The notes under the pieces were generated by a model, which made no database searches, was not told the DNA's origin, and saw nothing but the letters and a program-made list of their open reading frames with translations. From NCBI GenBank assembly GCA_022711115.1, contig JAKLFP010000002.1, positions 207,674-271,673 on the forward strand: 64,000 nucleotides of DNA. Direction: 5' to 3'. The position numbers and the translations under genes are program-made. Numbering within the stretch: position 1 is the stretch's first letter; the number at the start of each line of letters is the position of its first letter. Below, piece by piece: positions 6,827-36,287 of this stretch. The DNA comes from Candidatus Omnitrophota bacterium. GTDB lineage: Bacteria > Omnitrophota > Omnitrophia > Omnitrophales > Aquincolibacteriaceae.

Positions 6827-7069
6827 TTTGGAATTACCCTAGCTATTAAACTATCGGTCATTCTTGCAAAATCCTGAACAGATGGGTTCGTACCGCTTTC
6901 AAATTTAATCTATGAACGGATGAAGAATTGTGTAATGAATCGTGCGGGGCATTAGATGAATTTTGAGAGAATGGCCTCATGCCAAACCTTCTACAAACAA
7001 AAAGGGACAGGTAAAATGAAATATTCAACCTGTCCCTTCAATAACTGTTGTATCTTTTTTCTAAAAGCT

Positions 7070-7486: not shown

Positions 7487-7684
7487 TTTTGAATCCCCCT
7501 TTTTTGAATACTTTTCAAAATCTCTTCAAAAGTAAGTCTTATAAGAAAAATAACATATCCTCATTTTCAGTCAAATAAATGTTATATTCTGATAAGATTT
7601 GCTACATAAAATTCGTATACTTTACTGAAAAATTTTGTTCGTGCAGACCAATGAATATGGAAATCTAGAAAATTTTTTAGGCAA

Positions 7685-8119: not shown

Positions 8120-8919
8120 CGGATCTCTTCCATCGCGGCAAAAATAATTTCGGAACTCAAGGTTTTTTCCTTACGGACAAACCCGAGCAAAAGCGCCCTG
8201 TCGCAAAGGAGATTTACAAGGCGCGGGATCCCTTTCGAAAATTCATGGATCATGCGATACCCTTCCGCGGGAATGGACACCCCTGTCACCCCGGAGTGTT
8301 GCAGGCGAAAATCTATATAGGCCTTCACTTCGTTGAATTCGAGGGGCTGAAGCTCGCACTTGATCACGATACGCTGATAAATCTGCCGCAGGTCAAACCG
8401 ATGCAAACTTGCCTTAAGCTCCGGCTGACCCACCAGGACGATCTGCAGAAGTTTTCCGTGCTTTGTCTCAAGATTGGACAAAAGACGAATCTGTTCTAAC
8501 TGGTAGCCTCTGAGGTTTTGCGCTTCATCGATGATCAAGACTGCATTGCCCTGATTCAAACTGAGATGGATCAAGAAGGCATCCAACTTTTTGACAATAT
8601 CAAGATGGGTCTTTTTCTCAGGCTCAATGCCGAAGTCCTCGACAATCGCCTGCAAAAGCTGAAGGTCATTGAAATACGGACTCAAAACAAGCGAGGTCCG
8701 CACTGACTTTGGCAATCGTTCCAAAAGCGTCTTGCAAAGCGTCGTTTTGCCGGTCCCCACTTCCCCGGTAATCAGAATCAGCCCCTTGCGTTCTTCAATG
8801 CCGTACATCATCAAAGCCAGGGCCTCTTTGTGAGACCGGCCTTCAAAGAAAAAATCCGCATCCGTGGTAATGTTAAACGGCTGAGTCCTGAACCCGTAGA
8901 ATTCCTGAAGCGCGGTCAT
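8116..8919 (-). CDS. ExeA/GspA-family AAA ATPase
   Basis: Walker A motif GEVGTGKTT with ExeA-like overall length and layout. Confidence 0.75.
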   Translation of the reverse strand: MTALQEFYGFRTQPFNITTDADFFFEGRSHKEALALMMYGIEERKGLILITGEVGTGKTTLCKTLLERLPKSVRTSLVLSPYFNDLQLLQAIVEDFGIEPEKKTHLDIVKKLDAFLIHLSLNQGNAVLIIDEAQNLRGYQLEQIRLLSNLETKHGKLLQIVLVGQPELKASLHRFDLRQIYQRIVIKCELQPLEFNEVKAYIDFRLQHSGVTGVSIPAEGYRMIHEFSKGIPRLVNLLCDRALLLGFVRKEKTLSSEIIFAAMEEIR

Positions 8920-10472: not shown

Positions 10473-10547
10473 GACTCCTCCGTCCATGATGACCGTTCAG
10501 CCCTGTTTTTCGCATAGGCCAACAGCCTTGCATTGCAACCCATGAAT

Positions 10548-11027
10548 CTAATTTTTATGGGGTGCTAAATGCAATTCGAACTCCGAAACATTATCTTTCA
10601 GCCGGACACTGCCCGGTTGGATCTTGACGACCTGAAACTCGCCAAGGGCGTCTCCTTCGTTCAAAAAAATCCGGTTAATAATGACCGTCGGCTTTTGAGG
10701 ATCCCACATGATGCCCCCCAAAACCAAAGTTTGCCGCGAACCCATGGCATCCAGTCTCTTGCTCGCAAAAGGATCCCTTCCAACCGGTAATGCATCCACT
10801 ATGGCATTAAACCTGACAACAAAATTATCGTCTTTAACGTTCCTTCTCTTGACCTCCAAGAGAGAAGATTGTCGCGGAGTGCTCGGAACAGTTTCCGAGA
10901 TGATTTCTGCGACTGGCGCCGTACTTCGCGGTCCTTTGTTCTGCTGAAAAAGAGACCTAATCCCCCCAAAAAGCAAAATCACCAAAATGATGACAATGCC
11001 TAGCTCGATGATATCCTTGCGTCTCAT
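10548..11027 (-). CDS. PilP-like pilus assembly lipoprotein
   Basis: An N-terminal TM helix and a C-terminal beta-domain, positioned between pilO and pilQ. Confidence 0.5.
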   Translation of the reverse strand: MRRKDIIELGIVIILVILLFGGIRSLFQQNKGPRSTAPVAEIISETVPSTPRQSSLLEVKRRNVKDDNFVVRFNAIVDALPVGRDPFASKRLDAMGSRQTLVLGGIMWDPQKPTVIINRIFLNEGDALGEFQVVKIQPGSVRLKDNVSEFELHLAPHKN

Positions 11028-11617
11028 TTCGGCTCCAAAAGAAACAAGTTCAACTCCATCTGGATCTCCAGTCCTGGCACCGCCGGCAACACATCCGTTA
11101 TTTCCATTTTTTCGACAGTCAGATACGCCGGCAAAACCTTACGCAACGCTTCCAAATACTTGACCAGGTTCAGATAACCAGCCCTCATTTTCATGGCCAC
11201 TAAAACGGAAAGGCATGTCTTGCCCTCCACCACAACAGGGCGAGCAAGGCTGCCCTTAAAAATAACGGCAGGCTTCGCGCTGATCTTGTCTACATGAATT
11301 TGAAACTTACGCGCATAATCCGAAAGCATGACCAGTGATTTATGCTCATCATAAGGAAATTTTCGGGCAAGTTCTTTTTGTTCGCGAATGAAATAGGCCG
11401 CTACTTGGTCCGGATCTTTCACATGCTCAATCACCTGTCTCACCCATGACAATTGTTTCTTAAGGAAAAAATCCTGGGTCTTGACTGTTTCAAACGCAGT
11501 TTCCGCCGGCTGCAACGCAAAAACATAAAAGAGAACCACCGCGGCACAAAAAAGCACCCCCCACGCAACAATGATGACCTGCGCAAAAGTGATCTTGGGA
11601 CCTTGAACATTAATCAT
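11024..11617 (-). CDS. PilO/GspM-like inner-membrane assembly protein
   Basis: A single TM helix plus a periplasmic domain. Position within the operon supports the call. Confidence 0.55.
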   Translation of the reverse strand: MINVQGPKITFAQVIIVAWGVLFCAAVVLFYVFALQPAETAFETVKTQDFFLKKQLSWVRQVIEHVKDPDQVAAYFIREQKELARKFPYDEHKSLVMLSDYARKFQIHVDKISAKPAVIFKGSLARPVVVEGKTCLSVLVAMKMRAGYLNLVKYLEALRKVLPAYLTVEKMEITDVLPAVPGLEIQMELNLFLLEPK

Positions 11618-13199
11618 CTTTAAAAACCCCCTCGATACGAGACAAAGCCTCGGATTCCCCGAAAACAGGAGAAGAAGAAACCTTATCAAAAAAAGATGTC
11701 CCTCTCAATCTTGAAACAAAATCATCGACTACTTCGGCGCTTTGGATCCTTGAAAGCTCGATGGCGACCTCCAGAACGACCCTCTTTAAAGCAGCATCCA
11801 AAAAGAATTTCTTTATGACCATTTGCTCCGGCAACAAATACCCCAGCAGCTTCAAAACTTTTTCAGCCGGAACGGTCCCTCGTTCGATCTCCGAAACCAA
11901 GAAATGACGGGGAAAGGCCTTGCTGGAAAGCTCTGCAAAATTTCCCAATGTCTTAAGATGTCTTTCATCCATAGCGACATATTGCGCGTAATAAGCGGTC
12001 TGAAGCTTTACGAAGAAGAAAGACATCGCAAAAAACCCCGTCAGCCCCACTGTCAAAAGCAAAAGAATCTTTCGCTGAAATGCCTCAAATCTACGGCTTC
12101 TGAATTCAAACGGAAGAAAATTAACAGCTTCTTGCCCGGCAAAAACTCCCGCGACGCCGCTGACAAACTGACTCGTCTGAAAACTGTCACGTCCACCTTC
12201 CGCGGTCGGTCCTTTTTGATTTTGAATTTTGGCCGGAAGAAACAGATTGTGAACATTCATCCCGAGCCCCCGGCCAAGAAAGACATCCAGATTTTTGAAG
12301 GTCGCTCCGTGTCCCGTTAAAAAAAGTTTGGTGGGCGCAGTTTCCTTCCACCGGGTTTCATAATAGGAAAAAGAATAACGCATCTCCCGAACGAGTCCTT
12401 CCAAAAGAGGACGGATCAAGGCATAGAACTTTCCGATCCGGCTTGCTCCGTCTAAAACGGCGGTTTCTTCATCCGGAACGCCGTACATCTGAAGCACCTG
12501 CTCGACTTTTTGATCGGCAGCTTCTCCCTGTGTCTGAGATTCAAGAAATAAAGGATCGTTTAAACATTGTTTGATCTTGGCGAATGAAAAAGCCAGATCT
12601 CGGAAAAAGATCAACTGATTGCGTTTGTAAATCGCCAAGGTCGAATGATTATACCCGACATCCAGCAGGGCCTGGGTTTCGGCAGTCTCGCCCAACCAAG
12701 CAAGCATCTTCGGATAATCCAGCGGTGCAGCGGTCACCCGTTCGATATCAAAACCGGCTCGGGTCAGCACTAAAAGAAGGGATTGCAGGAGTTTCTGCTG
12801 TACTGTCGCATAGACCACAGCGCACTTTTGGGCCTGATCATCGTCTGTGAATTCTTTGACCACCTGATAATTAAAAAGCACTTGCGCTTGGCTCTTGGGA
12901 TCTTCATCTCTCGCATGCCAGGTCAGCGCCTGGACAAGTTCCTTGGCGGGCATCATGGGAAGGATGACGTTTTTGATCATGATGACGTTCGGGTCATAGA
13001 TCGTGACAAATACCTTGCGAGAAGAGATCCGATGCTGCCTTACAAACAACAGCATAGCTTCCCGAAGATTGACTTTGATATCTTCTTGACTAGGAAGGAC
13101 ATGCGTCATTTCCTGCGAGATCGTTACCTGGTCCTTTTCTTTTTGCAAAAGCAAGATCTTGACCCTGTGCTTTCCGATCTCAACGGCTAAAAACGACAT
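11610..13199 (-). CDS. fused PilM (actin-like ATPase fold) - PilN protein (GspL-like)
   Basis: An N-terminal PilM-like region of roughly 350 aa is followed by a TM helix (ILLLLTVGLTGFFAMSFFFV) and then a PilN-like periplasmic domain. Confidence 0.7.
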   Translation of the reverse strand: MSFLAVEIGKHRVKILLLQKEKDQVTISQEMTHVLPSQEDIKVNLREAMLLFVRQHRISSRKVFVTIYDPNVIMIKNVILPMMPAKELVQALTWHARDEDPKSQAQVLFNYQVVKEFTDDDQAQKCAVVYATVQQKLLQSLLLVLTRAGFDIERVTAAPLDYPKMLAWLGETAETQALLDVGYNHSTLAIYKRNQLIFFRDLAFSFAKIKQCLNDPLFLESQTQGEAADQKVEQVLQMYGVPDEETAVLDGASRIGKFYALIRPLLEGLVREMRYSFSYYETRWKETAPTKLFLTGHGATFKNLDVFLGRGLGMNVHNLFLPAKIQNQKGPTAEGGRDSFQTSQFVSGVAGVFAGQEAVNFLPFEFRSRRFEAFQRKILLLLTVGLTGFFAMSFFFVKLQTAYYAQYVAMDERHLKTLGNFAELSSKAFPRHFLVSEIERGTVPAEKVLKLLGYLLPEQMVIKKFFLDAALKRVVLEVAIELSRIQSAEVVDDFVSRLRGTSFFDKVSSSPVFGESEALSRIEGVFKDD

Positions 13200-13227
13200 G
13201 GGGTGTTTTGACTTTCTTATTTTAGTT

Positions 13228-13779
13228 TTAGATGTACTTGTTCACTTGAACGGAAGAGCTCTGCTGACTCATCCCCTCTAGATTATCGGAAGAACCCGTG
13301 CCGTTTTGAGCTATTAAATTGATCGCGATGCGCCGGACATCGGCCGCCGTATTCGTCACGGCTTCATTAGCGTCATAATATGTGAATAAAGCCCCGCTAA
13401 CGCCTGCAAGGACCATGTCCGATGCCGCCCCGTCGGGGACAAGAGCCTCCGCTCCGGTATCGATCTTGCGATAAAGTTTCCCAAGACCCACATCAAGACG
13501 GTAGGATATGGTGTGGTCATCCTGGTTGGTAACAATGATTTGATTGGGACTTGCCGTCGTCACGGCTTTGCTGAACCTTAACCCCTTCGCCAGCACATCT
13601 CCTTCGATCATGGTTTCCATGGCGCTGGCGGCCGTAAGATCCGCATTGACCTGGCTGGGTAAATAAAATGTATTATTGATTACAAACTTTGAGATGTGGA
13701 GCGATCCCACGGTCAGGAGTGCGATGATCAAAATCGTCATCACGACTTCAAGGATTGTAAACCCTTTAGCGTGTTTCAT
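13228..13779 (-). CDS. prepilin-type N-terminal cleavage/methylation domain protein (minor pilin)
   Basis: The N-terminus reads KGFTILEVVMTILIIALL. Confidence 0.75.
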   Translation of the reverse strand: MKHAKGFTILEVVMTILIIALLTVGSLHISKFVINNTFYLPSQVNADLTAASAMETMIEGDVLAKGLRFSKAVTTASPNQIIVTNQDDHTISYRLDVGLGKLYRKIDTGAEALVPDGAASDMVLAGVSGALFTYYDANEAVTNTAADVRRIAINLIAQNGTGSSDNLEGMSQQSSSVQVNKYI

Positions 13780-14159
13780 AAACCGTGCGTCACATCTTTT
13801 GTGATGGAACCATAAAGCGTCACTATATCCGTTGCCGACCCGGTCCGTTTGGCAGTCAAGGTAATGTCTTTTCTCTCCGCACCCCCGCCCCCCACCACCG
13901 TTGCCACAGTCCAGGTCACCGTATAGGAACCGTCTACAGAACTTCCGTTTGCAAGAGAACCATACGGAATATTATGCAATCTTTCCATTGCTTGGCGCGC
14001 CAAGTTGCCGGATGCCGTAAAATCAGTCGAGGTCATCATGCCCTGGATCTGTGAGCCGATCATGGAAGCCATCGGGATGGCGACCAAAGCCAAAATAACT
14101 GCCGCCATAATCAGTTCAATCAGCGTCACACCCTTGGAGAAATTATGGTTTCGTCGCAT
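13776..14159 (-). CDS. prepilin-type minor pilin
   Basis: The N-terminus reads SKGVTLIELIMAAVILALV. The start was chosen at MRRNH. Confidence 0.65.
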   Translation of the reverse strand: MRRNHNFSKGVTLIELIMAAVILALVAIPMASMIGSQIQGMMTSTDFTASGNLARQAMERLHNIPYGSLANGSSVDGSYTVTWTVATVVGGGGAERKDITLTAKRTGSATDIVTLYGSITKDVTHGL

Positions 14160-15207
14160 TGTAATAATCCAGAATCTCTTGAGCGGTCTTTTGACAGGCA
14201 TAGATATAAGCCTCATCGATCGTTCCGATAAATCGTGTCGTAGCACTATTGGTCGCCCGTGTCCCGATCTGTAAATTCCCGGCGGTCGCCCTTGCTACCC
14301 GGACTGTGGCATCAAAATTGACCGGATTACCATTCAAATAAAGACGCATGCCGGTCGCGCCCCAAGTTCCTGCGACGTGATACCAAGTGTTGAGTGCGAG
14401 ATTAGTATTTTCAGTCACACTTCGTTCGACACCTCCGGCATCGCGCAGTAAAATGCGAATACGACGGTTCGCTCCTGTTCGATTGATGACAAGCCCATAG
14501 GCTTCATCGTTGGAGTTGGATAAATTCCCTTTATGCACAATGCCTGCATTATTATTAACTTGAGCTGTAATATAAATCCACGCCATGATCGATCCAGAGG
14601 TCGTCAAATCAAGCCCATTGGCATCGGGAACAGTGACATAGTTATGCGTCGCTCCCTGGTTAAACCTTAACGCGGTTCCAATACGCCCTGCAACCCATGC
14701 GGGGCCTGTCGCATTGGAAGGGGTCAGCGTTCCCACATAGGGAGCGGTCCCTGTGGTAAAACCCGCTCCTTCGCTAAAAGGCCACCAGATTTGATCGCAA
14801 CAGACGGGCGGCGGGATGCCCGTACCCTCTCCTTCAAGATAAAGGGTTATTTTTGTCGCAGAATGATCGTATTGGGCAAAAACCGTACGAGATATCGAAT
14901 TACCCGAAGCAACTGAAGTCCCTATCGATTTGAGTTGATAAATATTCGAGCACTGGGCTACCACGGTAACCACAATTTGATTATTGGCATCCCAATTCGT
15001 GACAGGAAGCGGCGTCCCCGTCGACTTGATGTTGAAAATGGCTTTGTGAATCCCAGACTCGGCGAGATACAGGGCCTTCATACTGCGCGTCTGGGCATCA
15101 TAGCGGGTGATACTGCTTGTAATAAAAAAGGTGGTCCCGAAGACAATGATAGGGACAAGGATGATAATGATCAAAACGGTCATGAGAGCAAATCCCCTGC
15201 TCTTCAA
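14143..15207 (-). CDS. PilX/GspK-like minor pilin with a C-terminal LamG/concanavalin-like domain
   Basis: The N-terminus MKSRGFALMTVLIIIIL has no Glu5. A PilX_N-like ALYLAESG motif is present. The C-terminal region resembles a LamG jelly-roll (NGNPVNF...IDEAYIYA). Confidence 0.6.
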   Translation of the reverse strand: MKSRGFALMTVLIIIILVPIIVFGTTFFITSSITRYDAQTRSMKALYLAESGIHKAIFNIKSTGTPLPVTNWDANNQIVVTVVAQCSNIYQLKSIGTSVASGNSISRTVFAQYDHSATKITLYLEGEGTGIPPPVCCDQIWWPFSEGAGFTTGTAPYVGTLTPSNATGPAWVAGRIGTALRFNQGATHNYVTVPDANGLDLTTSGSIMAWIYITAQVNNNAGIVHKGNLSNSNDEAYGLVINRTGANRRIRILLRDAGGVERSVTENTNLALNTWYHVAGTWGATGMRLYLNGNPVNFDATVRVARATAGNLQIGTRATNSATTRFIGTIDEAYIYACQKTAQEILDYYNATKP

Positions 15208-15282
15208 AAATCCTCCCTTGAAAAATGAAGGGATGGCGCTTTTAAAAGCGCCATCCCATAACGTTAAAATGGTCTAAAATAC

Positions 15283-15651
15283 TTAAACGAATTGCCCAGT
15301 CGCTGCGGTATAGGTATACGTCGTGCCGGCCGGTCCGGTATAAGTTGTCGCACTTGCCTTGGTCCAATCCTGCTGAATACCGCCTTGATCCAAAATGGTA
15401 TCAAAGCATTTATTGGCTACCGCACAGGCTCCGACAGCCGCAGCATCTAGCGTCGCGGGATAGGCTTTATTCTTGGCGAAATAAGTGTAAATCCCGGATC
15501 TCACAGCACCCACCACTCCCTGTTCAGCAGCCGTTTTGGCATCCGTGGTGAGATCATAGTATTTGGGAATGGCCACAATGGCCAAGAGTCCCAATAGTAC
15601 AATGACCATAATCAATTCAATCAGCGTAAAACCTCTTTGATTTTTCCTCAT
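15283..15651 (-). CDS. type IV (pseudo)pilin, major pilin candidate (PilA/GspG-like)
   Basis: MRKNQRGFTLIELIMVIVLLGLLAIVAIP. The protein is 122 aa and its gene directly follows pilC. Confidence 0.8.
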   Translation of the reverse strand: MRKNQRGFTLIELIMVIVLLGLLAIVAIPKYYDLTTDAKTAAEQGVVGAVRSGIYTYFAKNKAYPATLDAAAVGACAVANKCFDTILDQGGIQQDWTKASATTYTGPAGTTYTYTAATGQFV

Positions 15652-15686
15652 TGCTTTCTCCTTTCAGCGAGAAATGTTTAAAAATA

Positions 15687-16901
15687 TTACTTTCGGAACA
15701 AACTGATAAGATTCCACATTGGCAAAAACATTCCCAACGCCAAAATAAGAACCATGCAACCAAGGACCACGATCAGCATCGGTTCAATAAGGGCCATGAG
15801 ATTGTCTACCGTATACGCTACCTGCATATCATAATAGTCTGAGACCTTTAAAAGCAATTCATCAATTTTACCGGTCTCTTCCCCCACCCGAACCATGCGT
15901 ACGACCGCCGGCGGAAAAATCTTGCTGGCCTTCATGGGCTCGGTCATTCCCGAACCTTCAATCACGCTCACCCGAATCTTATCAATCGCCTGGGCAACCA
16001 CCCTATTTTCCGCACTCCCATAAGCGATCTCTAGGGCCTTGACGGCCGTAATACCGCTTTGAATAAGCATGGACATGACTCGCGCAAAGCGGGACATATC
16101 GGCTTTCAATATTAACGGACCAAAGACCGGCAACTTGAGTATCATCTGATCCCAATAAAGTTTCCCCATCGGCGTTGTCAAAAACTTCCGAAAAAGAACC
16201 ACCGCCAAAATAAGCCCCGCAGCCATGAGCCAGCCGTAATGAACGGTTGCTTCATGGATCCCCAATAAAATACGCGTCGGCAGCGGGAGTATAACGTTGC
16301 GCTGAGCAAATAATTGGGCAAAGCGCGGAATGATGAAATTCGTCAGTGTAAAAAAAGCCAGCATGATCGCACTCAGAACGATGATGGGATAACGCAAAGC
16401 GGCTTTGATGCGCAAACGGAGTTTTTCCTCGGCCTCTCCAATATAGATCAGCCTCTCAAGGATCTGTTCCAATCGCCCCGATATTTCTCCAGCGCTGAAC
16501 ATATTCACGTAAAGTGAGTTAAAGGCTTGGGGATAACGCGCCAAACTTTCGGAGATGCTCGCGCCACCTCGAATGCTCCCCAATAAACCGTCCACAATAT
16601 TTTTGAGTAAGGGATTGCGGTCTTGTTCGCCGATGACTTCCAAAGATGCGGGAACCGTGAGGCCGGCTTTGACCAGGGTATAAAATTCACGCGTAAAACC
16701 GTTGATATCCGAGATTTTGAGCCGCCGGAAACGTTCAAAAAAACTCAAGGAAACGGAACTGCGGGACGGCGAGATCTGGAGCGGCGTCAAACCATCTTGT
16801 TTGAGGGCATTCCCTGCCTCAATTTCGTTATTCGCAGTGAGTTGGCCCGTGATAAGCTTGCCGAAATTATCCCGCGCCTTGTACTGGAAAAGGGTTGCCA
16901 T
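15687..16901 (-). CDS. pilC: type II secretion system F family platform protein (PilC/GspF)
   Basis: A 404-aa protein with two GspF repeats and three TM segments. Confidence 0.9.
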   Translation of the reverse strand: MATLFQYKARDNFGKLITGQLTANNEIEAGNALKQDGLTPLQISPSRSSVSLSFFERFRRLKISDINGFTREFYTLVKAGLTVPASLEVIGEQDRNPLLKNIVDGLLGSIRGGASISESLARYPQAFNSLYVNMFSAGEISGRLEQILERLIYIGEAEEKLRLRIKAALRYPIIVLSAIMLAFFTLTNFIIPRFAQLFAQRNVILPLPTRILLGIHEATVHYGWLMAAGLILAVVLFRKFLTTPMGKLYWDQMILKLPVFGPLILKADMSRFARVMSMLIQSGITAVKALEIAYGSAENRVVAQAIDKIRVSVIEGSGMTEPMKASKIFPPAVVRMVRVGEETGKIDELLLKVSDYYDMQVAYTVDNLMALIEPMLIVVLGCMVLILALGMFLPMWNLISLFRK

Positions 16902-18571
16902 TATTCGATCTCAGTAACGCGCAGAACCTCTTCCAAGGGCGTCAGACCCTGCTGAACTTTATCCAGACCGTCCTGTCTCAAAGTCTTCATCCCCTGTTCT
17001 ATAGCTTTTTTCTTTATGTCCATGGCTGAGCGCTTGTTGTCGACCATTGCCTTTATCTCATCATTCAGGGTCAAGAACTCAAAAATACCGATGCGACCCA
17101 TAAATCCGGTTTGATCGCACTTGGAACATCCTTTCCCTCGCATAAGTTGCACACCCTCCGGAAGCCCAACGCTCTGCAAAACAGCATGTGGTAACGCATA
17201 GGATTCCCGGCATTTCAAGCAATTCACGCGAACAAGACGTTGGGCCAGAATCCCAATCACCGAACTTGAAATCAGAAAAGGTTCGATACCCATATCGATA
17301 AGACGGGTCAAAGCCGAGGAAGCATCATTCGTGTGCAGCGTCGAGAAAACAAGATGGCCTGTCAACGAAGCCTGAATGGCCACCTCCACGGTTTCCCGAT
17401 CGCGAATCTCACCTACCATCATAGTATCCGGATCCTGACGAAGAAATCCGCGCAACCCATTGGCGAACGTAATCCCCGCTTTGGGGTTCACCTGCGTCTG
17501 ACGAATCCTCGGGATCACATACTCCACAGGGTCTTCAATGGTCACGATATTCTTTTGTTCCGCATTAATCTTGGAGAGTGCGGAATAAAGAGTCGTCGTT
17601 TTTCCGCTTCCGGTAGGACCCGTCACCAAAATAATCCCGAAAGGACGTGCGATCATCCGTGTAAAGCATTCCAAAATTTCCTTTGAAAAACCTAGTTCGG
17701 CAAGGTTCGGAAGCATCGCGCGTTTGTCCAAAAGCCGAAGAACAACATTCTCGCCAAACAATGTGGGAAATGTCGAAACACGAATGTCCAGGTCCTTGCC
17801 TTCAAGCTCGGTATGAATCTTACCGTCCTGGGGCTTTCGGTTTTCGGTGATATCCAAACCAGCCAGGATTTTGATCCTTGAAACAACCGGGTTCAGTATC
17901 TCAGAAGGAAATGTCGTAATCTGACTCAGCAACCCGTCGACCCGGAAACGAACCGCCACAATGCTTTCTTCGGGTTCGATGTGAATATCCGAAGCGCGAG
18001 ACTGGACAGCTTGGGAGAGTAGACTGTCGACAAGTTTGCTGATCGAAGTCCGTTCCGTAATTTCGCCAAGGATCGTTCCTTGTGCCGCAGGTGCTTTTTC
18101 CTTTTCAATAGACTTCACGATCTCTGCCACCGAGCCGTAGGAGTGGTAATAGGCATTGTAGGCCTTTTGAAATCCTCCCAAAGAAACAAGTACGGGATCG
18201 ACGACATCAAAATTGGTCACCGCACGAACCTGATCGATCGCGATAATATTATGAGGATCGACCATCCCGATCGACAGGGAATTCCCTGTCGTAAAAAGAG
18301 GAATGACATTGTACTTCTTGACAATGCTTTCGGGAACCAATTTGACAAGAGCACGATCAAGCCGGTAGTTATTCAGATCAACGTAGGGGACACCAAGCAG
18401 AGACGCCTTGGTATTGGCAATATCCTCTTCGGTGACATACCCGCTTTTGACCAATACGATTTCAAGCGGCTGACCGACGCGCGCAGCCTCTTTGGTGGCT
18501 CGTTCAGCCTCTTCCGGCCGAAGAAGCTCCTGCTTCAGCAGTAGATCAATGATTTTCATGGGTTGTGCCAT
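16901..18571 (-). CDS. pilB: type IV pilus assembly / T2SS ATPase (PilB/GspE)
   Basis: It has a GspE N-domain, Walker A GPTGSGKTTT, Asp and His boxes, and a C-terminal CxxC...CxxC motif. Confidence 0.9.
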   Translation of the reverse strand: MAQPMKIIDLLLKQELLRPEEAERATKEAARVGQPLEIVLVKSGYVTEEDIANTKASLLGVPYVDLNNYRLDRALVKLVPESIVKKYNVIPLFTTGNSLSIGMVDPHNIIAIDQVRAVTNFDVVDPVLVSLGGFQKAYNAYYHSYGSVAEIVKSIEKEKAPAAQGTILGEITERTSISKLVDSLLSQAVQSRASDIHIEPEESIVAVRFRVDGLLSQITTFPSEILNPVVSRIKILAGLDITENRKPQDGKIHTELEGKDLDIRVSTFPTLFGENVVLRLLDKRAMLPNLAELGFSKEILECFTRMIARPFGIILVTGPTGSGKTTTLYSALSKINAEQKNIVTIEDPVEYVIPRIRQTQVNPKAGITFANGLRGFLRQDPDTMMVGEIRDRETVEVAIQASLTGHLVFSTLHTNDASSALTRLIDMGIEPFLISSSVIGILAQRLVRVNCLKCRESYALPHAVLQSVGLPEGVQLMRGKGCSKCDQTGFMGRIGIFEFLTLNDEIKAMVDNKRSAMDIKKKAIEQGMKTLRQDGLDKVQQGLTPLEEVLRVTEIE

Positions 18572-22328: not shown

Positions 22329-22754
22329 TTAGCTTGAAGGCAAATAATTCGATGTGCCGGTAAACGTACCGTCCTGATCGATTCTGATCGTTGAAGCATC
22401 CTTAAGGCTTGTTGCCGTAGCGTAAAAGGATGTCGCGATGTCCCCCGTCAAACCTGGTCCTATGCTGAAATTGTAGCTTTCCGTTGTGACCTCCACTCCC
22501 AGTTTGTCCTTGATATCTGTAATGGTGCACGGAGTGGCCGCACACGCGATATACGTATTGTGCGTCGTATAATAAACCCTTTCTCCGGTTCTGATGACTC
22601 GCAGATAGACCGCCGCCGCACTAGCTTTGGATTTGTCCACACTCGCGGTAAAGTTTGGAATCACCATCGCGGCCAGAATGGATGCCACCACCATGGTTAC
22701 GATAAGTTCTAAAAGCGTTAAGCCTTTTTGTATTTTTTTATTTGTCTTTTGCAT
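22329..22754 (-). CDS. prepilin-type minor pilin (PilE/FimT/GspH-like)
   Basis: MQKTNKKIQKGLTLLELIVTMVVASILAAMV. The start was set at the internal ATG (22754). Confidence 0.7.
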   Translation of the reverse strand: MQKTNKKIQKGLTLLELIVTMVVASILAAMVIPNFTASVDKSKASAAAVYLRVIRTGERVYYTTHNTYIACAATPCTITDIKDKLGVEVTTESYNFSIGPGLTGDIATSFYATATSLKDASTIRIDQDGTFTGTSNYLPSS

Positions 22755-22831
22755 TTTAAAAACTCCTTTGCTGCCATCGATGAGTCCATCATAGCCTATT
22801 TGACACCTCACACCAATCCTCCTCTGAAGTC

Positions 22832-23149
22832 TCAATAGGCAACAGTCGATTCAATTTTGATCGATCCATCTGCTTGCATTGTTTTCGTAATCTCGACGGT
22901 TCTTCCATCCACATTGAGAAAACCAACCACCGGCGATCCCAGTGTGGGTGAAGAAATCCCATTTCTGGATTCCCATATGCCATGTTGCACTCCCGCCTCG
23001 GCAAGGTATTGAGCATTGATCATAGCAGCACCGGACATCTGCAGCATTGACGCAAGATTCGCTTTTGCATTCAGAATCGCCGTGAGCAGAATCGCCGTGA
23101 TGATCGCAAAAACCAAAACTGATATGAGTGCAAATCCGTTTTTTTTCAT
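22832..23149 (-). CDS. PilX/GspK-like minor pilin
   Basis: MKKNGFALISVLVFAIITAIL has no Glu5. A PilX_N-like YLAEAG motif is present. Confidence 0.6.
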   Translation of the reverse strand: MKKNGFALISVLVFAIITAILLTAILNAKANLASMLQMSGAAMINAQYLAEAGVQHGIWESRNGISSPTLGSPVVGFLNVDGRTVEITKTMQADGSIKIESTVAY

Positions 23150-23673
23150 GGCTGAGCACTCCTGCAACGCGACACGATCGTTGTTTTCAAAATTAATGGC
23201 GGCGCATTTTCAGGCTGGGCCGTGATCTTGATTTCGACTCGATTAGCATCAAGAAGCGTAAACCCTAAACTCACCACCTTGCTTGCTAACACTACTGGCG
23301 CGTTCGCCGGATTGCTTCCTTCTTGACTTATATATTTCAAATCGTTTAAACCTGTGCCGTCTGGATATAAAGCATAAGTATAAGTCGTATCATCCGCATC
23401 GGATGCCGGCGTGCCTGCTTCGTCGATCCCGATGGTAATACTGCCGGCAGAGACGTTGATTGCATTAGCAATTTGAACTTTATTGATGATATCTTCAAAA
23501 GCTTGTATGATCGCCGTCTGAGAAGCTGGTTCCGACTTACTAAGGTTAATCATAGCTCGCATCAAAGTAGTCATCACATTCGACGAAGCGAGCAAAACCG
23601 TCGAAAGCAAGGCCATCGCGATGATCATTTCAAGCAAAGACAGCCCTTCGTGCCCCTTTTTTATTCGTTCCAT
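23146..23673 (-). CDS. PilW/GspJ-like minor pilin
   Basis: GLSLLEMIIAMALLSTVLLAS prepilin N-terminus. The protein is 175 aa. Confidence 0.65.
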   Translation of the reverse strand: MERIKKGHEGLSLLEMIIAMALLSTVLLASSNVMTTLMRAMINLSKSEPASQTAIIQAFEDIINKVQIANAINVSAGSITIGIDEAGTPASDADDTTYTYALYPDGTGLNDLKYISQEGSNPANAPVVLASKVVSLGFTLLDANRVEIKITAQPENAPPLILKTTIVSRCRSAQP

Positions 23674-24050
23674 GTTACAGTCACCGTCACTTTTTTATAC
23701 ATCAGTCTTCCAAAACCATCCATGATGTCATCCACCTGATAATTCCGGGTTGCCGCATAGCTTGCGTTTGCAAAAAAAGGACCCGAGGTAATCGGATCAC
23801 TTTTGGGCAAGCCGGAATCCACGAGCGGTTCCCCGAGATCGCCTGGACCAGACAGTACACTTACATGATTTTTGAGATTCTCCATGGTTTCTCTCGCATA
23901 GTAAGTCGCCATGATCGTATTCGCGGCATTTTTCGTCAGGGTCGGCTTAGTGCCCGTATAAAAAAGCGCGGCACACACCCCCAACGTGATCGTCGAAAAT
24001 ACGACCAAACTGACAATCACCTCAATCAGCGAAAATCCACGCTTTTTCAT
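23661..24050 (-). CDS. PilV/GspI-like minor pilin
   Basis: MKKRGFSLIEVIVSLVVFS. The protein is 129 aa. Confidence 0.7.
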   Translation of the reverse strand: MKKRGFSLIEVIVSLVVFSTITLGVCAALFYTGTKPTLTKNAANTIMATYYARETMENLKNHVSVLSGPGDLGEPLVDSGLPKSDPITSGPFFANASYAATRNYQVDDIMDGFGRLMYKKVTVTVTWNE

Positions 24051-24095: not shown

Positions 24096-24923
24096 TCAAG
24101 CGATACCCGGCAATTCCTTCCAGGCATGCGAACTGTTGCAGTACATGATCCTTCCAGTGACGGGCGCTCCGGGCTGATAATACACAAGCGTCCCTTCTCG
24201 CGTTGCATTACACGCATAGACGTTTATATCCACAGCCCCAACCTTGATGGCGCCTTCGACGCTTAACACCGGATAAACGTTAGAATCGGAACTGCTCATG
24301 GTGACCCCTCTGCCCGAAAAAGTAGTTGTTGAAGTGGCCGGATCGCCAGGAGAACCCGTTTGAACGCGCAGTTCCCGCGGAACAGAAAGTTGTGTTGCAT
24401 TCGGTAAAGTCGCATGGGCAGACCCATGCATGCGCAACACCGCTGTATCATTCAAATTGTTTTGAAATGCTATCCCCGCGCCATTCGCCGCATCATAGTT
24501 TTGCAATCGAATGCCCGGACTGCTGACGTAAGCAAAGAACTTCGCAGTGGTCGAAGTCATCGTTCTGATTTTTACGTTTCCTTGATTATCCACATAAAAT
24601 CCGTTATGAATATCCAAAAGAAAATTGGGGTAGATTGTCCCAATACCAACTTTCCCTTGAACGACGAGGGAAGTCGCTGTTTCCGTTCGGGAGGAATTCG
24701 CTGGGCACACTTCATCCACCCAGCAGACACTGCTTGCATTCATGTAATCAGCACCGATGGCCGCACGTTTAAGGCTTAATTGCTTATAGCCACCAAAAGG
24801 AGAAGGATAAGAAGAATTAACAGTCATTTGTCTGTCGACAGCAGCTGCAAAATCTGAAAAAGCAAACAGCCCCGCGATGCTTATCAAAATTATTCGACTT
24901 GCCTTCCTCATTCTCTTTTGCAT
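24096..24923 (-). CDS. secreted Cys-containing protein, paralog 1 of 3 (unknown family, co-operonic with the minor pilins)
   Basis: A Sec signal peptide (IAGLFAFSDFAAA). Conserved blocks shared with paralogs 2 and 3 include SYPSPFGGYKQLSLKRAAIG, VCW, LVVQGKVGIGT, and a C-terminal GAIKVGA...C...YCN..W..L. Confidence 0.6.
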   Translation of the reverse strand: MQKRMRKASRIILISIAGLFAFSDFAAAVDRQMTVNSSYPSPFGGYKQLSLKRAAIGADYMNASSVCWVDEVCPANSSRTETATSLVVQGKVGIGTIYPNFLLDIHNGFYVDNQGNVKIRTMTSTTAKFFAYVSSPGIRLQNYDAANGAGIAFQNNLNDTAVLRMHGSAHATLPNATQLSVPRELRVQTGSPGDPATSTTTFSGRGVTMSSSDSNVYPVLSVEGAIKVGAVDINVYACNATREGTLVYYQPGAPVTGRIMYCNSSHAWKELPGIA

Positions 24924-24943
24924 TTTTTCCTCATCCTGCCTCA

Positions 24944-25918
24944 TTAAGCTTTAAGTTTTTTCCAGCCACGGCCGTCACAAAAATAAAAACGTCTATCACT
25001 AAGAAAGGTGATGACTCCTTTCGTCCATGCGGTGCCATCATCACAAGCAGGCAGACTCGTCGCCAGCCATTGCGCCCCGATTTTTACGGCACCCCTTACA
25101 TTCAAGACCGCTTCAGTAACATGATTGGGATCTGAGCTTTTGATGGTCATGTTGGCCCCTCCAAAAAAATCGGTGGTCGATGTCGAAGTACCACTGCTGT
25201 CGCCGGAAAAAAATAAAAGCCGGTTATTCATGATAAAACTCCAAACCGATTTATTTGGATCGACGGACGTATAATAGGGATTAAGCGTGAAAATGCTATA
25301 TTGACCTAAATTATTTAACAGGTCTAACTGAATCGAGTTCCCCGCCACGGGTTGTTGAAATTTGATTGTCGGAGAAGTCGTTGCTGACGGTTTCTCGTAA
25401 ATGTAAACTTTTGCATTAGGCACTAGATCAAGCGCCCCTATCGCGATACGCGCATAGCGATCCACCTGGAATGCGGTTATCTTGCATTCGAGACCATCTT
25501 TCGAGCCGTTACCATTTTCATCATACCAATCATACCCCGGGGGACAGGAGGTACCGGAGGGAGCTACCGCATTCCCCACAACCGACAAAAGCCCTTTCGG
25601 CCGTGCCGTGCCAATGCCCACATTCCCCTCCACAAACAATGAGTCATTAAGAGCCGAAGACCGTGAAGATCCGCTCGGACAGTACGGATCATTGGAATCA
25701 TCCCAACAAACAACCGATCGATTGACATAATGGGTGCCGAGGGCCATATACTTCAGGTTCGCTTGCCGGTAGCTTCCGTGGGAAGTCGGATAGGTCTCCG
25801 TAGAGGTAAAGTGGTTACCGCTTGCAAAAGAAATAGGCGAAGAGAAAAAGAGAGTTCCTAACAACGCCATCGCCAAAGTTTTTCCGGCCGCACTCACCTT
25901 CAAATCAACTCTTTTCAT
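24944..25918 (-). CDS. secreted Cys-containing protein, paralog 2 of 3
   Basis: A signal peptide. It shares TYPTSHGSYRQANLKYMALG, VVCW, FVEGNVGIGTARP, SCPPGYDWYDENGN...ECKITAFQV, and the C-terminal VRGAVKIGA...CDDG...FYFCDGRGWKKL. Confidence 0.6.
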   Translation of the reverse strand: MKRVDLKVSAAGKTLAMALLGTLFFSSPISFASGNHFTSTETYPTSHGSYRQANLKYMALGTHYVNRSVVCWDDSNDPYCPSGSSRSSALNDSLFVEGNVGIGTARPKGLLSVVGNAVAPSGTSCPPGYDWYDENGNGSKDGLECKITAFQVDRYARIAIGALDLVPNAKVYIYEKPSATTSPTIKFQQPVAGNSIQLDLLNNLGQYSIFTLNPYYTSVDPNKSVWSFIMNNRLLFFSGDSSGTSTSTTDFFGGANMTIKSSDPNHVTEAVLNVRGAVKIGAQWLATSLPACDDGTAWTKGVITFLSDRRFYFCDGRGWKKLKA

Positions 25919-25966
25919 TAAAGATTCACCGTCCATGTTTCACCTGGTTTTTCGCCATACTTCTCA

Positions 25967-26908
25967 TCAAGTGCCGAGAGTTTGCCATCCTGTATTGTCA
26001 CAAAACTGAAACTGGTTCCCGCTATACCGAATAAGCCCGTGATTAGTCACATCACAAACGACCGTTCCAGGCGTCGCGCCGACTTTGATCGATCCGTTAA
26101 CACCTAAGAGAGGGGATGTGGATCCAGCCGGATTTTTTATAACGATCCCTTTTCCGGAAAAAATCATTTTCTCTACGTTGGGTCCCATCATATAAAGAAC
26201 CAGTTCAGCCGGAGTCGTTAGGCTGAATAATCTTGGAGTTGGCGCCGCCGACCCGAAAAGTTGAAATGAAATGCTTTTGTTTCCCTCGTTTTGCAGCTGA
26301 AGACTCGGGCCGACAGCCGGGTTATCATTTTCCATCTTGAGAACATAACTATTCGTGATGGGCCCTCCCGATGAGGAAGTAAGAGAACGGTCGCTGAAAA
26401 AAATTGTTTTTCCATTATTGTTTACGTGCCCCACACTCAGTTCGTTCGATGCATTGATCTGAAATGCAGTGACCCGGCATTCTCCGGCATTAATGGCATT
26501 GTCACCATTTGCATCGTACCAATTCCAACCAATCGGGCAGCTTCCGCTGGTTGAGGGAATCACATTAAACTCGGGCGAAGTAACCGCAAAGCGCGCAACA
26601 GGAAGAGACGTAGTTCCGTCTTTCCCTTGCCGTGTATTCCCTATGCCCATATATCCCTGCACCACCAGAGACGTCGCCGCATCGATCGGGGTCGTTAAAA
26701 GACAAGTGGGATCATCGGCCCAACAGGTTGTTTTGGGATCCATGTAATTGGATCCAATAGCGGCATGCTTCAAGCCAATCTGCTTATAAGATCCTTGGGA
26801 GCTCGGAAGATAGGTTGTAAGCGTTACTTGCCGGGTTGCGGCAAAGAGAAATACTGGAAACAGGATAAAAAAAATTGCTAGCAATACAGCAATAGTCTTT
26901 TTACTCAT
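25967..26908 (-). CDS. secreted Cys-containing protein, paralog 3 of 3
   Basis: A signal peptide. It shares TYLPSSQGSYKQIGLKHAAIG, TTCW, LVVQGYMGIGN, SCPIGWNWYDANGD...ECRVTAFQI, and the C-terminal GSIKVGA...CDV...FQFCDNTGWQTL. Confidence 0.6.
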   Translation of the reverse strand: MSKKTIAVLLAIFFILFPVFLFAATRQVTLTTYLPSSQGSYKQIGLKHAAIGSNYMDPKTTCWADDPTCLLTTPIDAATSLVVQGYMGIGNTRQGKDGTTSLPVARFAVTSPEFNVIPSTSGSCPIGWNWYDANGDNAINAGECRVTAFQINASNELSVGHVNNNGKTIFFSDRSLTSSSGGPITNSYVLKMENDNPAVGPSLQLQNEGNKSISFQLFGSAAPTPRLFSLTTPAELVLYMMGPNVEKMIFSGKGIVIKNPAGSTSPLLGVNGSIKVGATPGTVVCDVTNHGLIRYSGNQFQFCDNTGWQTLGT

Positions 26909-26934
26909 TCTATTCTCCGAAGATCTAAAACAAT

Positions 26935-27105
26935 TTATTAATTAAATTTTATATCTAGTTTAATTATAGCATATTATAACTACTTTATATAAAACTATAA
27001 TATACTTAAATATAAAAATATATAAAAATAAATAGTATTTTATAACAATAAATTTGTAACATTTTTACTACATGCTCGAGTCAAATTCCCATAATAGATC
27101 TTTGT
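26935..27105. other. extreme AT-rich tract (mostly A/T over about 170 nt) in the 660-bp leader of the paralog-pilin operon
   Basis: Direct reading: ttaattaaattttatatctagtttaattatagcatattataactactttatataaaactataatatacttaaatataaaaatatataaaaataaatag... Confidence 0.7.
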
Positions 27106-27568
27106 AAGCAATCAAATCGGCACTACAAAAGATGTCTACCTACCAAGGCACTCATGCACAATAAAGCTACAAATCGCTTATACTTTAAAATCAAAAAAAA
27201 CTCGCATGTTCCGTTACACGTTTAGTATCGGCAAAATAATCAAAAATTTAGACTCACTTCAACATAGACAAAGAATGTTTATAAACTATGAATCAAAAAG
27301 AGCCATTTTAAAGCAATCTTATCTTCGCCCTTACGCTTAGATGCTTGAATCTAGAAAATGAGATTTCGATTGTAAGGAAGACATTAAACAACCCGCCGAT
27401 ATGCTAACAATACAACCGACTACACAGATCTTGGAGTGCGAAAAACCAACCGAGTGACGGATAAGATTCTCTCTTGAGCCCATCCCTCAAAACGGAATTC
27501 AGACATTCAGAAAAAGATCGTTCAAGACTCTAGGGCCGATCGCCCGTCTTATTTGAGTTAGTTTATAA

Positions 27569-34376: not shown

Positions 34377-36287
34377 TCAGGTTGTTGTGGATTCGTTTTG
34401 ATTGACCGATCGGTTGAATAACGCCCTGGGACCATTCTTTTTTTCCGGCTCCGGTTCCGCCGATTGATTGCCAAGAAAAACAATTAATTTCTGAAGACCT
34501 TGCCTGAGGATATCCACATTACGTGACCATTCCCCCAACTCACGAATGGCCGCCGCATTACGGCGATCCACTCGACTCCGGTAACGCCGATGCTCGTCCT
34601 CCAATTTGGCAACACGTATTTCCTGCTCGGTAAGCTTTGCGTCATACTCACCGCGTATCGTCTCACGCTCTTTGGAAAGAATGGCATGTTCTTGACGAAT
34701 ATTCTCCGTTTCCTGGACTTTCGTAATAAGCTCCGTGACTTTCCGTTCCAACTCAGAAAGCGCCATATCCCGAGCCTTAAGAATTTCCTCTTTTTCAATC
34801 AGACTGCGGTCTAACATCTTAATCTTTGCCGTCAAATCCATCTCACGGCTTTGAAGTCCTGCGATTTGGATCCTCACATCCTCCTGAACTTTTTCTTTCT
34901 CTGATAAACGCGTTTCCAGATCAGAAATTGTTGCATTCAATTCCTTTTCGCGGTTCTGAAAATGTAAAACCTGCGCTTGTGCCTCCTCCTGAGTTTTTTC
35001 CTTCTTCGCCAAACGCATTTCCAAATCAGAAGTCTTCGCTATCAATTCTTTTTCCCGATCCTGCCATACCGAAAGCTGACCCGTTGCTTCTTGCAACGCG
35101 TTTTCCTTTTCAGCGATCTTCGATTCCAAATCGGAGGTTTTTGCAGCCATCCCCTTTTCACGAAATTGATATTCCGCCAGCTCTTTCTGAACCGCTTCCA
35201 ACGATTTTTCAGTTTCTTGTAAGACACTTGCCAACGCATCCGCTCTGACTGTCATCTCTTTTTCACGGTTTATCAAATCAGACTGAGCTGTTTCCAGAGA
35301 ACGTTGTTTGTCAGTAAAATCCGCATCCGAAGCTTTTGCCTTCATCGCCAATTCCTGAACTCGCGCCTGAAGCGCTGCGATCTCCTCCTCCCGCTCAGCC
35401 AAGTCCCTTTCAAGCATCTTAATCCTGGATTCGGCCTCTTCGTCTTGTCTTCCCGTTTGTGAGCACGCTTCCTTTGAATCAGCCTTCTGAAAATCTCGCA
35501 TCCTGTTCTCCAAACGCTCCATTTGGCTCCGAAGGACGTCACACGTATCCTGCAAAGTTTGCTTGTTTTGTATTTCGCGGGCAAGTTCGTCCCTCAGCTT
35601 GGAAACTTCCTCACTTCCCTGTTTTTCCGATGGTCCTCTAAATCTATCCTGAAGTTCGCTTTTGAATTTTTCTTTCTCCTCAGAGGGCTGTTTGTTCATT
35701 GCTGCCTTCTCGTCTTGCATTCTTTGAAGACGATCCGAAAGCTCTCTCGCTCGCTTGTCCCAATCAGATTCAACGACAGGAACGTCTTCTTTAGCGGCGC
35801 TTTCTGCATCCGGGGATTTCACCTCCGGCAACGCGGGGTTCACTTCCATTTCAGGCGCAGGCACAGGAACCGTTTCAGAAATTTTTAGCAGATCCGGTTC
35901 GCTGACAACGGGGACAGAATCTGACGCCACCGACTGTTCTTTGGACAGCATATTCTCTGAATCATCTTTTAAAAAAATAGCAAGATCCGGAACTTCCGGC
36001 CACACAATTTGAAAACAATTTTTTTTGATCATGTCATGATTAGTCGTTTCGACAACAACTCCGAGTTTTTGAAAAAAATTCTTGATCCGGGCGGCCATGC
36101 CGAAAGAGAGATTGTCCAAAAGAATAAGCGGCATATTCAAGAGAGCCTGCTCGGCATCTTTTTTCTCAAGATCAAAAATTTCAACCATACGTTTCACAAC
36201 TTCTTTTTTTTGCTTCGGTGAAACAGATTGCAAAATGACGCTCCAATCCTCCGAAACGCCTCCGATCCTACTTTCATGCATCGCCAT
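34377..36287 (-). CDS. long coiled-coil protein with a globular N-domain and about four 35-aa tandem heptad repeats
   Basis: A 636-aa protein rich in E, K, L, and Q. It contains repeated KTSDLE.KIAEKE...REKEL units. Confidence 0.6.
   Translation of the reverse strand: MAMHESRIGGVSEDWSVILQSVSPKQKKEVVKRMVEIFDLEKKDAEQALLNMPLILLDNLSFGMAARIKNFFQKLGVVVETTNHDMIKKNCFQIVWPEVPDLAIFLKDDSENMLSKEQSVASDSVPVVSEPDLLKISETVPVPAPEMEVNPALPEVKSPDAESAAKEDVPVVESDWDKRARELSDRLQRMQDEKAAMNKQPSEEKEKFKSELQDRFRGPSEKQGSEEVSKLRDELAREIQNKQTLQDTCDVLRSQMERLENRMRDFQKADSKEACSQTGRQDEEAESRIKMLERDLAEREEEIAALQARVQELAMKAKASDADFTDKQRSLETAQSDLINREKEMTVRADALASVLQETEKSLEAVQKELAEYQFREKGMAAKTSDLESKIAEKENALQEATGQLSVWQDREKELIAKTSDLEMRLAKKEKTQEEAQAQVLHFQNREKELNATISDLETRLSEKEKVQEDVRIQIAGLQSREMDLTAKIKMLDRSLIEKEEILKARDMALSELERKVTELITKVQETENIRQEHAILSKERETIRGEYDAKLTEQEIRVAKLEDEHRRYRSRVDRRNAAAIRELGEWSRNVDILRQGLQKLIVFLGNQSAEPEPEKKNGPRALFNRSVNQNESTTT

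Follow-up and report, generated by a model that had tools for sequence, protein, structure and literature searches.

Three consecutive genes in a 64,000-nucleotide stretch of the genome of a Candidatus Omnitrophota bacterium (assembly GCA_022711115.1, contig JAKLFP010000002.1, positions 207,674 to 271,673; this whole stretch is hereafter called the window) are, judging from their sequences, three old tandem paralogs of a multigene family of Omnitrophota. We designate these genes, which encode proteins of 282, 330 and 313 amino acids (aa), pA, pB and pC, respectively. The family is best read as one of small, Sec-exported, disulfide-stabilized fibers that would resemble miniature phage tail fibers or the prey-binding MAT (mosaic adhesive trimer) fibers of Bdellovibrio. 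For the three proteins of the window (the trio), we estimate a probability of roughly 0.55 that they are short, probably trimeric, surface-exposed adhesive fibers with a conserved base and variable tips. We favor this reading because of the architecture of the proteins, the homology of the repeats to MAT and phage fibers, the mosaic tips and the export signals.

The trio and its protein family

The open reading frames (ORFs) of the trio are located on the minus strand of the window and are read in one direction, with exactly the coordinates and lengths that an earlier note on this DNA had given. The stop codon of pB and the start codon of pA overlap by one base, and an alternative start of pA at Met8 corresponds to a 275-aa form (P0002). 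The sequence of pC is identical to P0001, which is annotated as a hypothetical protein of a Candidatus Omnitrophota metagenome-assembled genome. That the three genes are paralogous, as the note had proposed, was evident from pairwise blastp comparisons (E 1e-19 to 1e-35, identity 28–42%). No similarity was detected among them at the nucleotide level, which implies that the duplication is old, and no fourth copy was found within the 64-kb window. All motif blocks listed in the note were present in the trio alignment: the N-block (SSYPSPFGGYKQLSLKRAAIG...CW, ETYPTSHGSYRQANLKYMALG...CW and TYLPSSQGSYKQIGLKHAAIG...CW), the mid-motif (LVVQGKVGIGT, LFVEGNVGIGT and LVVQGYMGIGN) and the C-terminal block (GAIKVGA...C...YCNSSHAWKEL, GAVKIGA...C...FCDGRGWKKL and GSIKVGA...C...FCDNTGWQTL). 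Also in agreement with the note, which had recognized no known domain in these proteins, searches of the trio against Pfam, NCBIfam, PHROG and PDB sequences yielded nothing significant; with Pfam and NCBIfam at E<=1, one spurious nec1 match was the only result. A single-sequence search of 5.8 billion proteins with pC returned pC itself as the sole match, and thus there are no close orthologs outside the source population. Every contig that bears pC derives from this same population and has the same gene order, which makes a comparison among them impossible.

At each of the three N-termini, a basic n-region is accompanied by a hydrophobic core of 12 aa (mean Kyte-Doolittle value 2.0–3.4) and an AxA-like site (AAA/V, SFA/S and LFA/A, where the slash marks the predicted cleavage), and these sequence features support the Sec signal peptides assigned earlier. 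No later hydrophobic span was found in the trio, and neither a membrane anchor nor a lipobox nor a sorting signal at the C-terminus was seen. All cysteines of the trio occur in local pairs, as the note had suggested: two pairs in pA (74/80 and 245/269) and three each in pB (77/86, 131/151 and 298/320) and pC (62/69, 124/144 and 285/303).

The middle pair of pB and pC bounds an insert module of ~21 residues, C-P-x-G-(Y/W)-x-W-Y-D-E-N-G-(N/D)-G...E-C, which is reminiscent of a calcium-binding loop. It occurs once in each of these two proteins, is absent from pA, is repeated in family members P0006 and P0014, and alternates with fiber repeats in some relatives.

An exhaustive profile search with the three paralogs produced 8707 matches at E<=1e-3. 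Among the 150 best matches, 89 were proteins of 180–640 aa with the N-block at residue ~26–50, right behind the signal peptide; the remainder were giant proteins of 1000–7400 aa, which aligned only via dozens of VGIGT repeats or the C-terminal knob. The consensus of the N-block in this family is (E/D)x(L/I)T(I/L)T-TYYPSPYG(S/V)YRELR(A/S)(Q/K)RMAIGDNY...(Y)CW...C...ADLVVEGNVGIGT, and in the trio it starts at residues 26–42, behind the predicted signal peptide. We built a non-circular hidden Markov model (HMM) of this N-domain from 28 members from outside the window and used 900 shuffled sequences as a control. The model scored pA, pC and pB at 78.8, 65.9 and 55.2 bits, respectively, with 6.6 bits for the best shuffle, and blastp searches from the trio reached 215–239 of 249 family members. 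By these measures, membership of the trio in the N-block family is secure.

A scan of species-representative genomes (one for each GTDB species) with the N-domain yielded more than 600 matches to the pattern, at least 511 of which were confirmed as family loci. The 79 distinct best loci were labeled Omnitrophota in 60 cases (including Gygaella and Susulua), "uncultured Planctomycetia/-ales" in 18 and "uncultured bacterium" in one. The family is often present in multiple copies; for example, at least six genes, distributed over four loci, are present on the complete chromosome CP070807, and tandem pairs were detected at 11 loci. This multigene family is almost confined to Candidatus Omnitrophota. 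The trio is no novelty of this locus: its family comprises thousands of proteins, nearly all from Omnitrophota. On the other hand, the idea that the family is new held up, as it is described in none of the literature searched: the motifs YYPSPYG and GNVGIGT were not found there, PF26696 (see below) was likewise unmentioned, and two papers on Omnitrophota (PMC10066038; bioRxiv 10.64898/2026.06.07.730766) do not describe it. The kind of protein, a tail-fiber-like bacterial adhesin with a conserved N-terminal base, is already known; new here are the N-domain, the shortness of the proteins and the phylum.

Members of the family share one architecture, in which a signal peptide is followed by an N-domain of ~70 aa (TYYPSPxGxY...CW...C), LVVEGNVGIGT fiber repeats and a mosaic C-terminus. 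The N-domain is always directly behind the signal peptide and ends in one LVVEGNVGIGT repeat; the number of VGIGT-type repeats varies from 1 to 7 and the protein length from 105 to 640 aa. The C-termini of 166 non-redundant members comprised a Peptidase_S74 (S74) chaperone in 43 (26%), a Cys knob of the trio type in 38 (23%) and other sequences in 85. The knob has ~50 residues with the pattern L.V.G.(I/V)K(I/V)G...C.....G.(I/M)RY.....(Y/F)C.G..W. With an HMM derived solely from the C-termini of the trio, this module was recovered in 25 small members of the family (E 4e-11 to 2e-4) and also in giant proteins, where it is repeated 3–11 times. In P0183, P0212 and P0239, the knob occurs as a variant without cysteines, for which the precomputed Pfam label is PF26696 PTL_trimer.

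The cysteines of the N-domain also tend to occur together: among 187 sequences, both were present in 92, neither in 81 and a single one in 14, and the total number of cysteines was even in 77% of members. This co-occurrence and the even counts fit disulfides and an extracytoplasmic location.

Among P0151–P0237, many complete members have only 105–140 aa, in which the signal peptide and the N-domain are followed by a single repeat and a short tail. The tails include several recurrent types (...ATGGLIIETRTxDP..P.DGQ(L/M)WLRTD, ...VTNGIITSII and ...VVGLPVYANNAAAIAGGLTAGALYRTGSDPDQVCVVH), which suggests that they are distinct classes of mini-tips. One 130-aa member, found in two related contigs (8001–8393 in L178, and L179), is located between pheS and pheT, an odd site for the gene of a secreted protein.

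Evidence bearing on the fiber reading

A link to fibers of known structure came from P0018, a family member which has the N-block and an S74 end (confirmed by Pfam) and which is named "tail fiber domain-containing protein" by NCBI. This protein matched the crystal structure of the Bd2133 fiber (8OND) with an E-value of 2.4e-6 and that of Bd1334 (8OML) with an E-value of 0.013, and both alignments run along ERMRI..GNVGIGT..P..KL.V.G repeats. The VGIGT mid-motif, which the earlier note had likened to motifs of phage tail fiber-like proteins, is indeed a repeat of the tail-fiber type. Bd2133 and Bd1334 are MAT fibers, which consist of a signal peptide, a conserved N-domain, a trimeric, beta-helical and meandering fiber and variable tips, and which were shown to be displayed on the cell surface (Caulton et al., PMC10769870). 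Their N-domain, a beta-rich unit of ~130 aa immediately behind the signal peptide, is common to all 21 MATs, has no PDB homolog and is presumed to bind an element of the predator surface; 13 of the 21 MATs end in S74 (PMC10769870).

If the trio proteins are indeed fibers of this kind, their chains would form trimers, and the conserved N-domain would serve as the base, either assembling the fiber or docking it onto a conserved element of the envelope. The ligands bound by the divergent middle and the knob might then be located on surfaces or on those larger cells to which host-dependent nanobacteria attach, and the three paralogs could provide three specificities. A promoter in the AT-rich region upstream of pC may drive transcription of the trio and of the four pilin genes that follow it; fibers and the type IV pilus/type II secretion-like machine encoded nearby would thus appear together. 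The secretin system of the window would be a plausible route for export of the fibers.

Several observations weigh against this interpretation. The profile of the trio itself, when searched against PDB, did not match the MAT structures, and these proteins contain just one clear and one degenerate fiber repeat. The full-length AlphaFold2 (AF2) monomer model of pB was of low confidence (predicted local distance difference test score of 57). Such poor models are what one usually obtains for the single chain of an intertwined trimer. A Foldseek search of PDB with this model gave nothing significant (best E 0.34, to Bd1334), and a model of the N-domain, which in the trio is a unit of ~70 aa with six short strands, had no significant fold match either. 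An hhalign comparison of the Cys-knob alignment with PTL-type knobs was weak (P 4e-4, probability 34%, only 24 columns), and the possible relation of the Cys knob to PF26696 PTL_trimer is a lead only. Finally, that the trio and the four pilin genes are co-transcribed, as the mechanism proposed above supposes, is plausible from their spacing.

The lists of non-significant fold matches were dominated by Bd1334, a VgrG spike, tail fibers and endosialidases; we give these lists no weight beyond noting that they would be consistent with a fiber-like fold. Relatives of Bd2133 were not found in two metagenome scans, where the best match (L159) was a phage-like fiber without a signal peptide, and a protein search with a Bd2133 fragment retrieved short unrelated fibers only.

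Genomic neighborhood and alternative explanations

Coordinates of the trio, its modules and the neighboring features are given in Table 1.

Table 1. Positions in the window of the trio, its modules and neighboring features
Feature	Position	Strand	Description
pC	25967..26908	-	313 aa; predicted signal peptide (cleavage ~LFA/A, residue 23), N-domain, fiber repeat, Cys124-Cys144 insert, variable middle, C-terminal Cys knob
pB	24944..25936	-	330 aa; architecture as pC
pA	24096..24944	-	282 aa; architecture as pC minus the Cys insert module
pC N-domain	26630..26833	-	Residues 26-93; 65.9 bits, E 1e-16, N-domain HMM
pB N-domain	25592..25813	-	Residues 42-115; 55.2 bits, E 3e-13, N-domain HMM
pA N-domain	24624..24839	-	Residues 36-107; 78.8 bits, N-domain HMM; conserved family domain ending LVVQGKVGIGT
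pC insert module	26477..26539	-	Cys124-Cys144; alignment
pB insert module	25484..25546	-	C-P-x-G-Y-x-W-Y-D-E-N-G...E-C; Cys131-Cys151; alignment
pC C-terminal knob	25970..26134	-	Cys285...Cys303; trio alignment, trio C-terminus HMM
pB C-terminal knob	24947..25120	-	Cys298...Cys320; trio alignment, trio C-terminus HMM
pA C-terminal knob	24099..24284	-	Degenerate fiber repeat LSVEGAIKVGA, then Cys245...Cys269 hairpin ending in W
Leader upstream of pC	26909..27568	-	660 bp, non-coding, AT-rich; likely promoter region of the unit
Prepilin-type genes	22329..24050	-	23661-24050 (129 aa), 23146-23673 (175 aa), 22832-23167 (111 aa), 22329-22835 (168 aa)
MSHA-like type IV pilus/type II secretion-like cluster	8116-18571	-	T2SSE with MshEN, T2SSF, Laminin_G_3, pilins, PilM-like, T2SSM-like, secretin, ExeA/MshM-like AAA

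Downstream of pA, and on the same strand, are four prepilin-type genes with matches to N_methyl and TIGR02532. The spacing within the seven-gene unit is tight (30 bp, the one-base overlap, 45 bp and then further overlaps), and no terminator-like site was found between pA and the first pilin gene. The earlier note had described the trio as located upstream of, and co-directional with, a pilin operon; this is correct, the two being on the minus strand and separated by a 45-bp gap. It had also labeled the pilins PilV-, PilW-, PilX- and PilE-like. They are of the prepilin type; the four labels correspond to sub-threshold NCBIfam matches only. No PilY1 gene was seen in the adjacent operon, again as noted earlier; the view that the trio occupies the position expected for PilY1 proved incorrect, as the trio lies upstream of the first minor pilin. 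In Pseudomonas, the gene order is fimU-pilVWXY1Y2E, with PilY1 between pilX and pilE.

No Rfam family was found in the 660-bp leader, and sigma-70-like matches at 27026–26997 provide weak consensus evidence for a promoter. In the final ~150 bp of the leader, the sequence consists almost entirely of A/T and includes TATA-like runs. Beyond the four pilin genes, the same strand has genes for a CBS protein, a histidine kinase (dCache, PAS) and a response regulator, followed by secretion/pilus genes; the kinase and the regulator are placed between the 8116–18571 cluster and the pilin operon. In this cluster, MshEN is of the type that binds cyclic di-GMP, the Laminin_G_3 protein (354 aa) is beside two to three prepilin genes, the PilM-like protein has 529 aa, and the secretin has STN and Secretin_N domains. 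The surrounding chromosome is ordinary (queC/queE, RNase PH, Ham1, PFOR, NrdD and tRNA synthetases).

Two other ORFs on the minus strand of the window were observed. One (55505–63970) encodes at least 2821 aa from a GTG start as listed, and the actual start codon could be situated outside the window; it has only a Methyltransf_28 domain and a weak Arm-DNA-bind_2 match, and may be one of the long, poorly annotated proteins of Omnitrophota. The other (34377–36287) encodes 636 aa and has no Pfam match, with a weak CCDC39 coiled-coil as its only precomputed annotation.

The neighborhood of the trio raises the question of whether these proteins are pilus-tip adhesins, i.e., whether they dock, via the N-domain, on the complex of minor pilins at the tip of a type IV pilus or pseudopilus, which would make them small functional analogs of PilY1. 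We examined a sample of ~87 family loci (79 taken from genomes, seven obtained by contig look-ups, and that of the window), in which pilin genes were sought by a regular expression and by an HMM that recovered the pilins of the window. A family gene touched pilin genes at three of these loci (the window, L074 and L180), and a lone pilin was present 3–9 kb away at four further loci. Pilin-like genes account for ~1.3% of genes in the sampled loci, so that 1–2 adjacencies would be expected by chance as a rough estimate; three are not clearly above this number, and the link to pili is weakened accordingly. In favor of a pilus role, the trio heads a four-gene prepilin operon; the L074 member is 160 bp upstream of a cluster of pilin, minor-pilin and PilMNOPQ genes; in L180 and L181, the 134-aa P0212 is encoded between PilW-like and pilin genes, in a PilY1-like slot; and a PilY1 gene was not seen in any of these operons. 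In addition, a possible interplay of MAT fibers with type IV pili was raised previously (PMC10769870). However, most members are encoded beside housekeeping genes, the neighbors at the other loci including recA, recX, alaS, valS, ftsH, smc, purB, GGDEF, pheS/pheT and groES genes, and with several copies per genome there are far more family genes than pilus systems. The trio also lacks the Neisseria_PilC beta-propeller, a vWA domain and a prepilin signal: the class III signal (N_methyl, PF07963/TIGR02532) was not found in it, unlike in the four downstream genes. The possibility of a pilin-associated clade was rejected, as the pilin-adjacent members do not group together and, in comparison with the trio, the L074 protein ranks 107–118 and P0212 ranks 201–218 of ~230. 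All-vs-all clustering of 1173 neighbor genes revealed no conserved partner gene, with no gene family present in more than eight loci and those at the top being housekeeping genes. We therefore regard a position beside pilin genes as occasional in this family and not as a rule, and a pilus-tip role of the trio as quite unlikely. Of the earlier proposal of a new family of pilus-tip adhesins or exoproteins, an exported, Cys-paired and undescribed family remains, and the pilus-tip role is weakened; the synteny with pilin genes that it anticipated in relatives exists in two of them (L074 and L180) but is rare. In a more specific version, which in our opinion is very doubtful, the N-domain would be a docking module of a new kind, by which interchangeable mini-fibers are mounted on the minor pilins at the tip of a type IV pilus or pseudopilus. 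This version would explain the three independent insertions into minor-pilin operons and the absence of PilY1 there; if true, a retractile pilus would be armed with swappable, tail-fiber-like receptor-binding tips, and the scattered paralogs would be a tip repertoire for one pilus.

It is also conceivable, though on balance rather unlikely, that the trio proteins are soluble exoproteins released by the neighboring secretin-based (type II secretion-like/MSHA-like) machine, with the N-domain acting as a secretion or folding determinant and not as a base. Sec signal peptides, disulfides and the lack of any recognizable anchor or sorting signal are what one would expect of such proteins, and the T2SSE-MshEN, T2SSF, PilM-like, T2SSM-like, secretin and ExeA-like AAA genes are downstream on the same strand. 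On the other hand, a conserved N-terminus followed by fiber repeats and a swappable tip is the architecture of an attached fiber, for which S74 tips are typical; no enzyme domain was detected in the trio with Pfam or NCBIfam; and family genes at other loci are unlinked to secretion genes. Highly improbable, in contrast, is an origin as prophage, tailocin or contractile-injection tail-fiber remnants that have no cellular role. The VGIGT repeat and the S74 tips are shared with phage tail fibers, and tail fibers and endosialidases were prominent in the non-significant fold lists mentioned above. However, the trio had no PHROG match, tblastn with pC found nothing in 50,697 phage records, and the N-block was essentially absent from 2.9 million viral contigs, where 11 weak matches were obtained, most of them at the VGIGT end only, and the sole long match (36% identity) lacked the N-block motif. 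Signal peptides are atypical of phage fibers, and the chromosomal neighbors are housekeeping genes, with no phage structural genes seen. On the basis of these searches, a phage origin was rejected.

In one contig of the sampled set (L180, ENA ERZ24794666, positions 6020–8266), the minor-pilin operon encodes PilX-like (130 aa), PilV-like (137 aa) and PilW-like (178 aa) proteins and a 130-aa pilin, and the gene for P0212, which has both the N-block and the PTL_trimer end, is inserted before the last pilin gene. The operon is immediately downstream of an O-antigen/glycosyltransferase (Wzy_C) cluster, and L181 has the same arrangement of P0212 and the pilin genes.

Significance and comparison with known systems

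The majority of Omnitrophota are ultra-small, and their genomes suggest a way of life that depends on hosts and is possibly predatory or parasitic; with regard to host attachment, attention has so far been on type IV pili and giant ORFs (PMC10066038; bioRxiv 10.64898/2026.06.07.730766). Small secreted fibers that are multi-copy, nearly specific to the phylum and composed of a conserved base and mosaic tips would be a candidate repertoire for recognition of hosts or surfaces, parallel to that of the MAT fibers in Bdellovibrio. The N-domain is not represented by any model in the copies of Pfam and NCBIfam that we searched, nor could a PDB homolog be detected, so that it would be a new domain family. 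With a size of 105–640 aa, these proteins should be easily expressed, solved and tested on glycan or cell arrays.

Among known systems, PilY1/PilC resembles the trio in having a Sec signal peptide and no prepilin signal and in being encoded with minor pilins, as is the case in the window and, in the slot between minor pilins, for the L180 member. It differs in size (~1000 aa versus ~300 aa, or 282–330 aa, in the trio) and in its C-terminal beta-propeller (PF05567) and the vWA-like domain usually present at its N-terminus, both of which the trio lacks, and most members of the N-block family are unlinked to pilins. The PF26696 PTL_trimer module occupies the same position as the trio knob, being a C-terminal unit of ~45 aa that follows a fiber repeat and ends in G-x-[IV]-[VR]-Y-N...F/Y-x-F/C-x-x-G-x-W; the trio knob, however, contains a Cys pair, and the PRMTxxQR segment is missing from it.

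Phage tail fibers and tailspikes with Peptidase_S74 (PF13884), such as the K1F endosialidase and the T5 L-shaped fiber, share with the N-block family the VGIGT-type repeat, the S74 C-terminal chaperone (in 26% of the family) and the combination of a conserved attachment end with a variable receptor-binding end. The trio differs from them in having Sec signal peptides and disulfides, in its chromosomal location without phage neighbors, and in the absence of S74, of a PHROG match and of any match to phage DNA or proteins.

The MAT fibers of Bdellovibrio bacteriovorus (Bd2133, Bd1334 and Bd3182; PDB 8OND, 8OML and 8OJN) and the N-block family have the following in common: a signal peptide followed by a conserved N-domain without a PDB homolog, a fiber (predicted in the family) of ...GNVGIGT..P..KL.V.G repeats, mosaic C-terminal tips with S74 and non-S74 subgroups (the trio being of the non-S74 knob type), many paralogs per genome, and a predatory or host-dependent organism. 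They differ in length, which is 600 to more than 1100 aa in MATs versus 105–640 aa with 1–7 repeats here, and in phylum, which is Omnitrophota here. Their N-domains, compared by size and description only, have ~130 aa in MATs and ~70 aa (TYYPSPxGxY...CW...C) in the N-block family.

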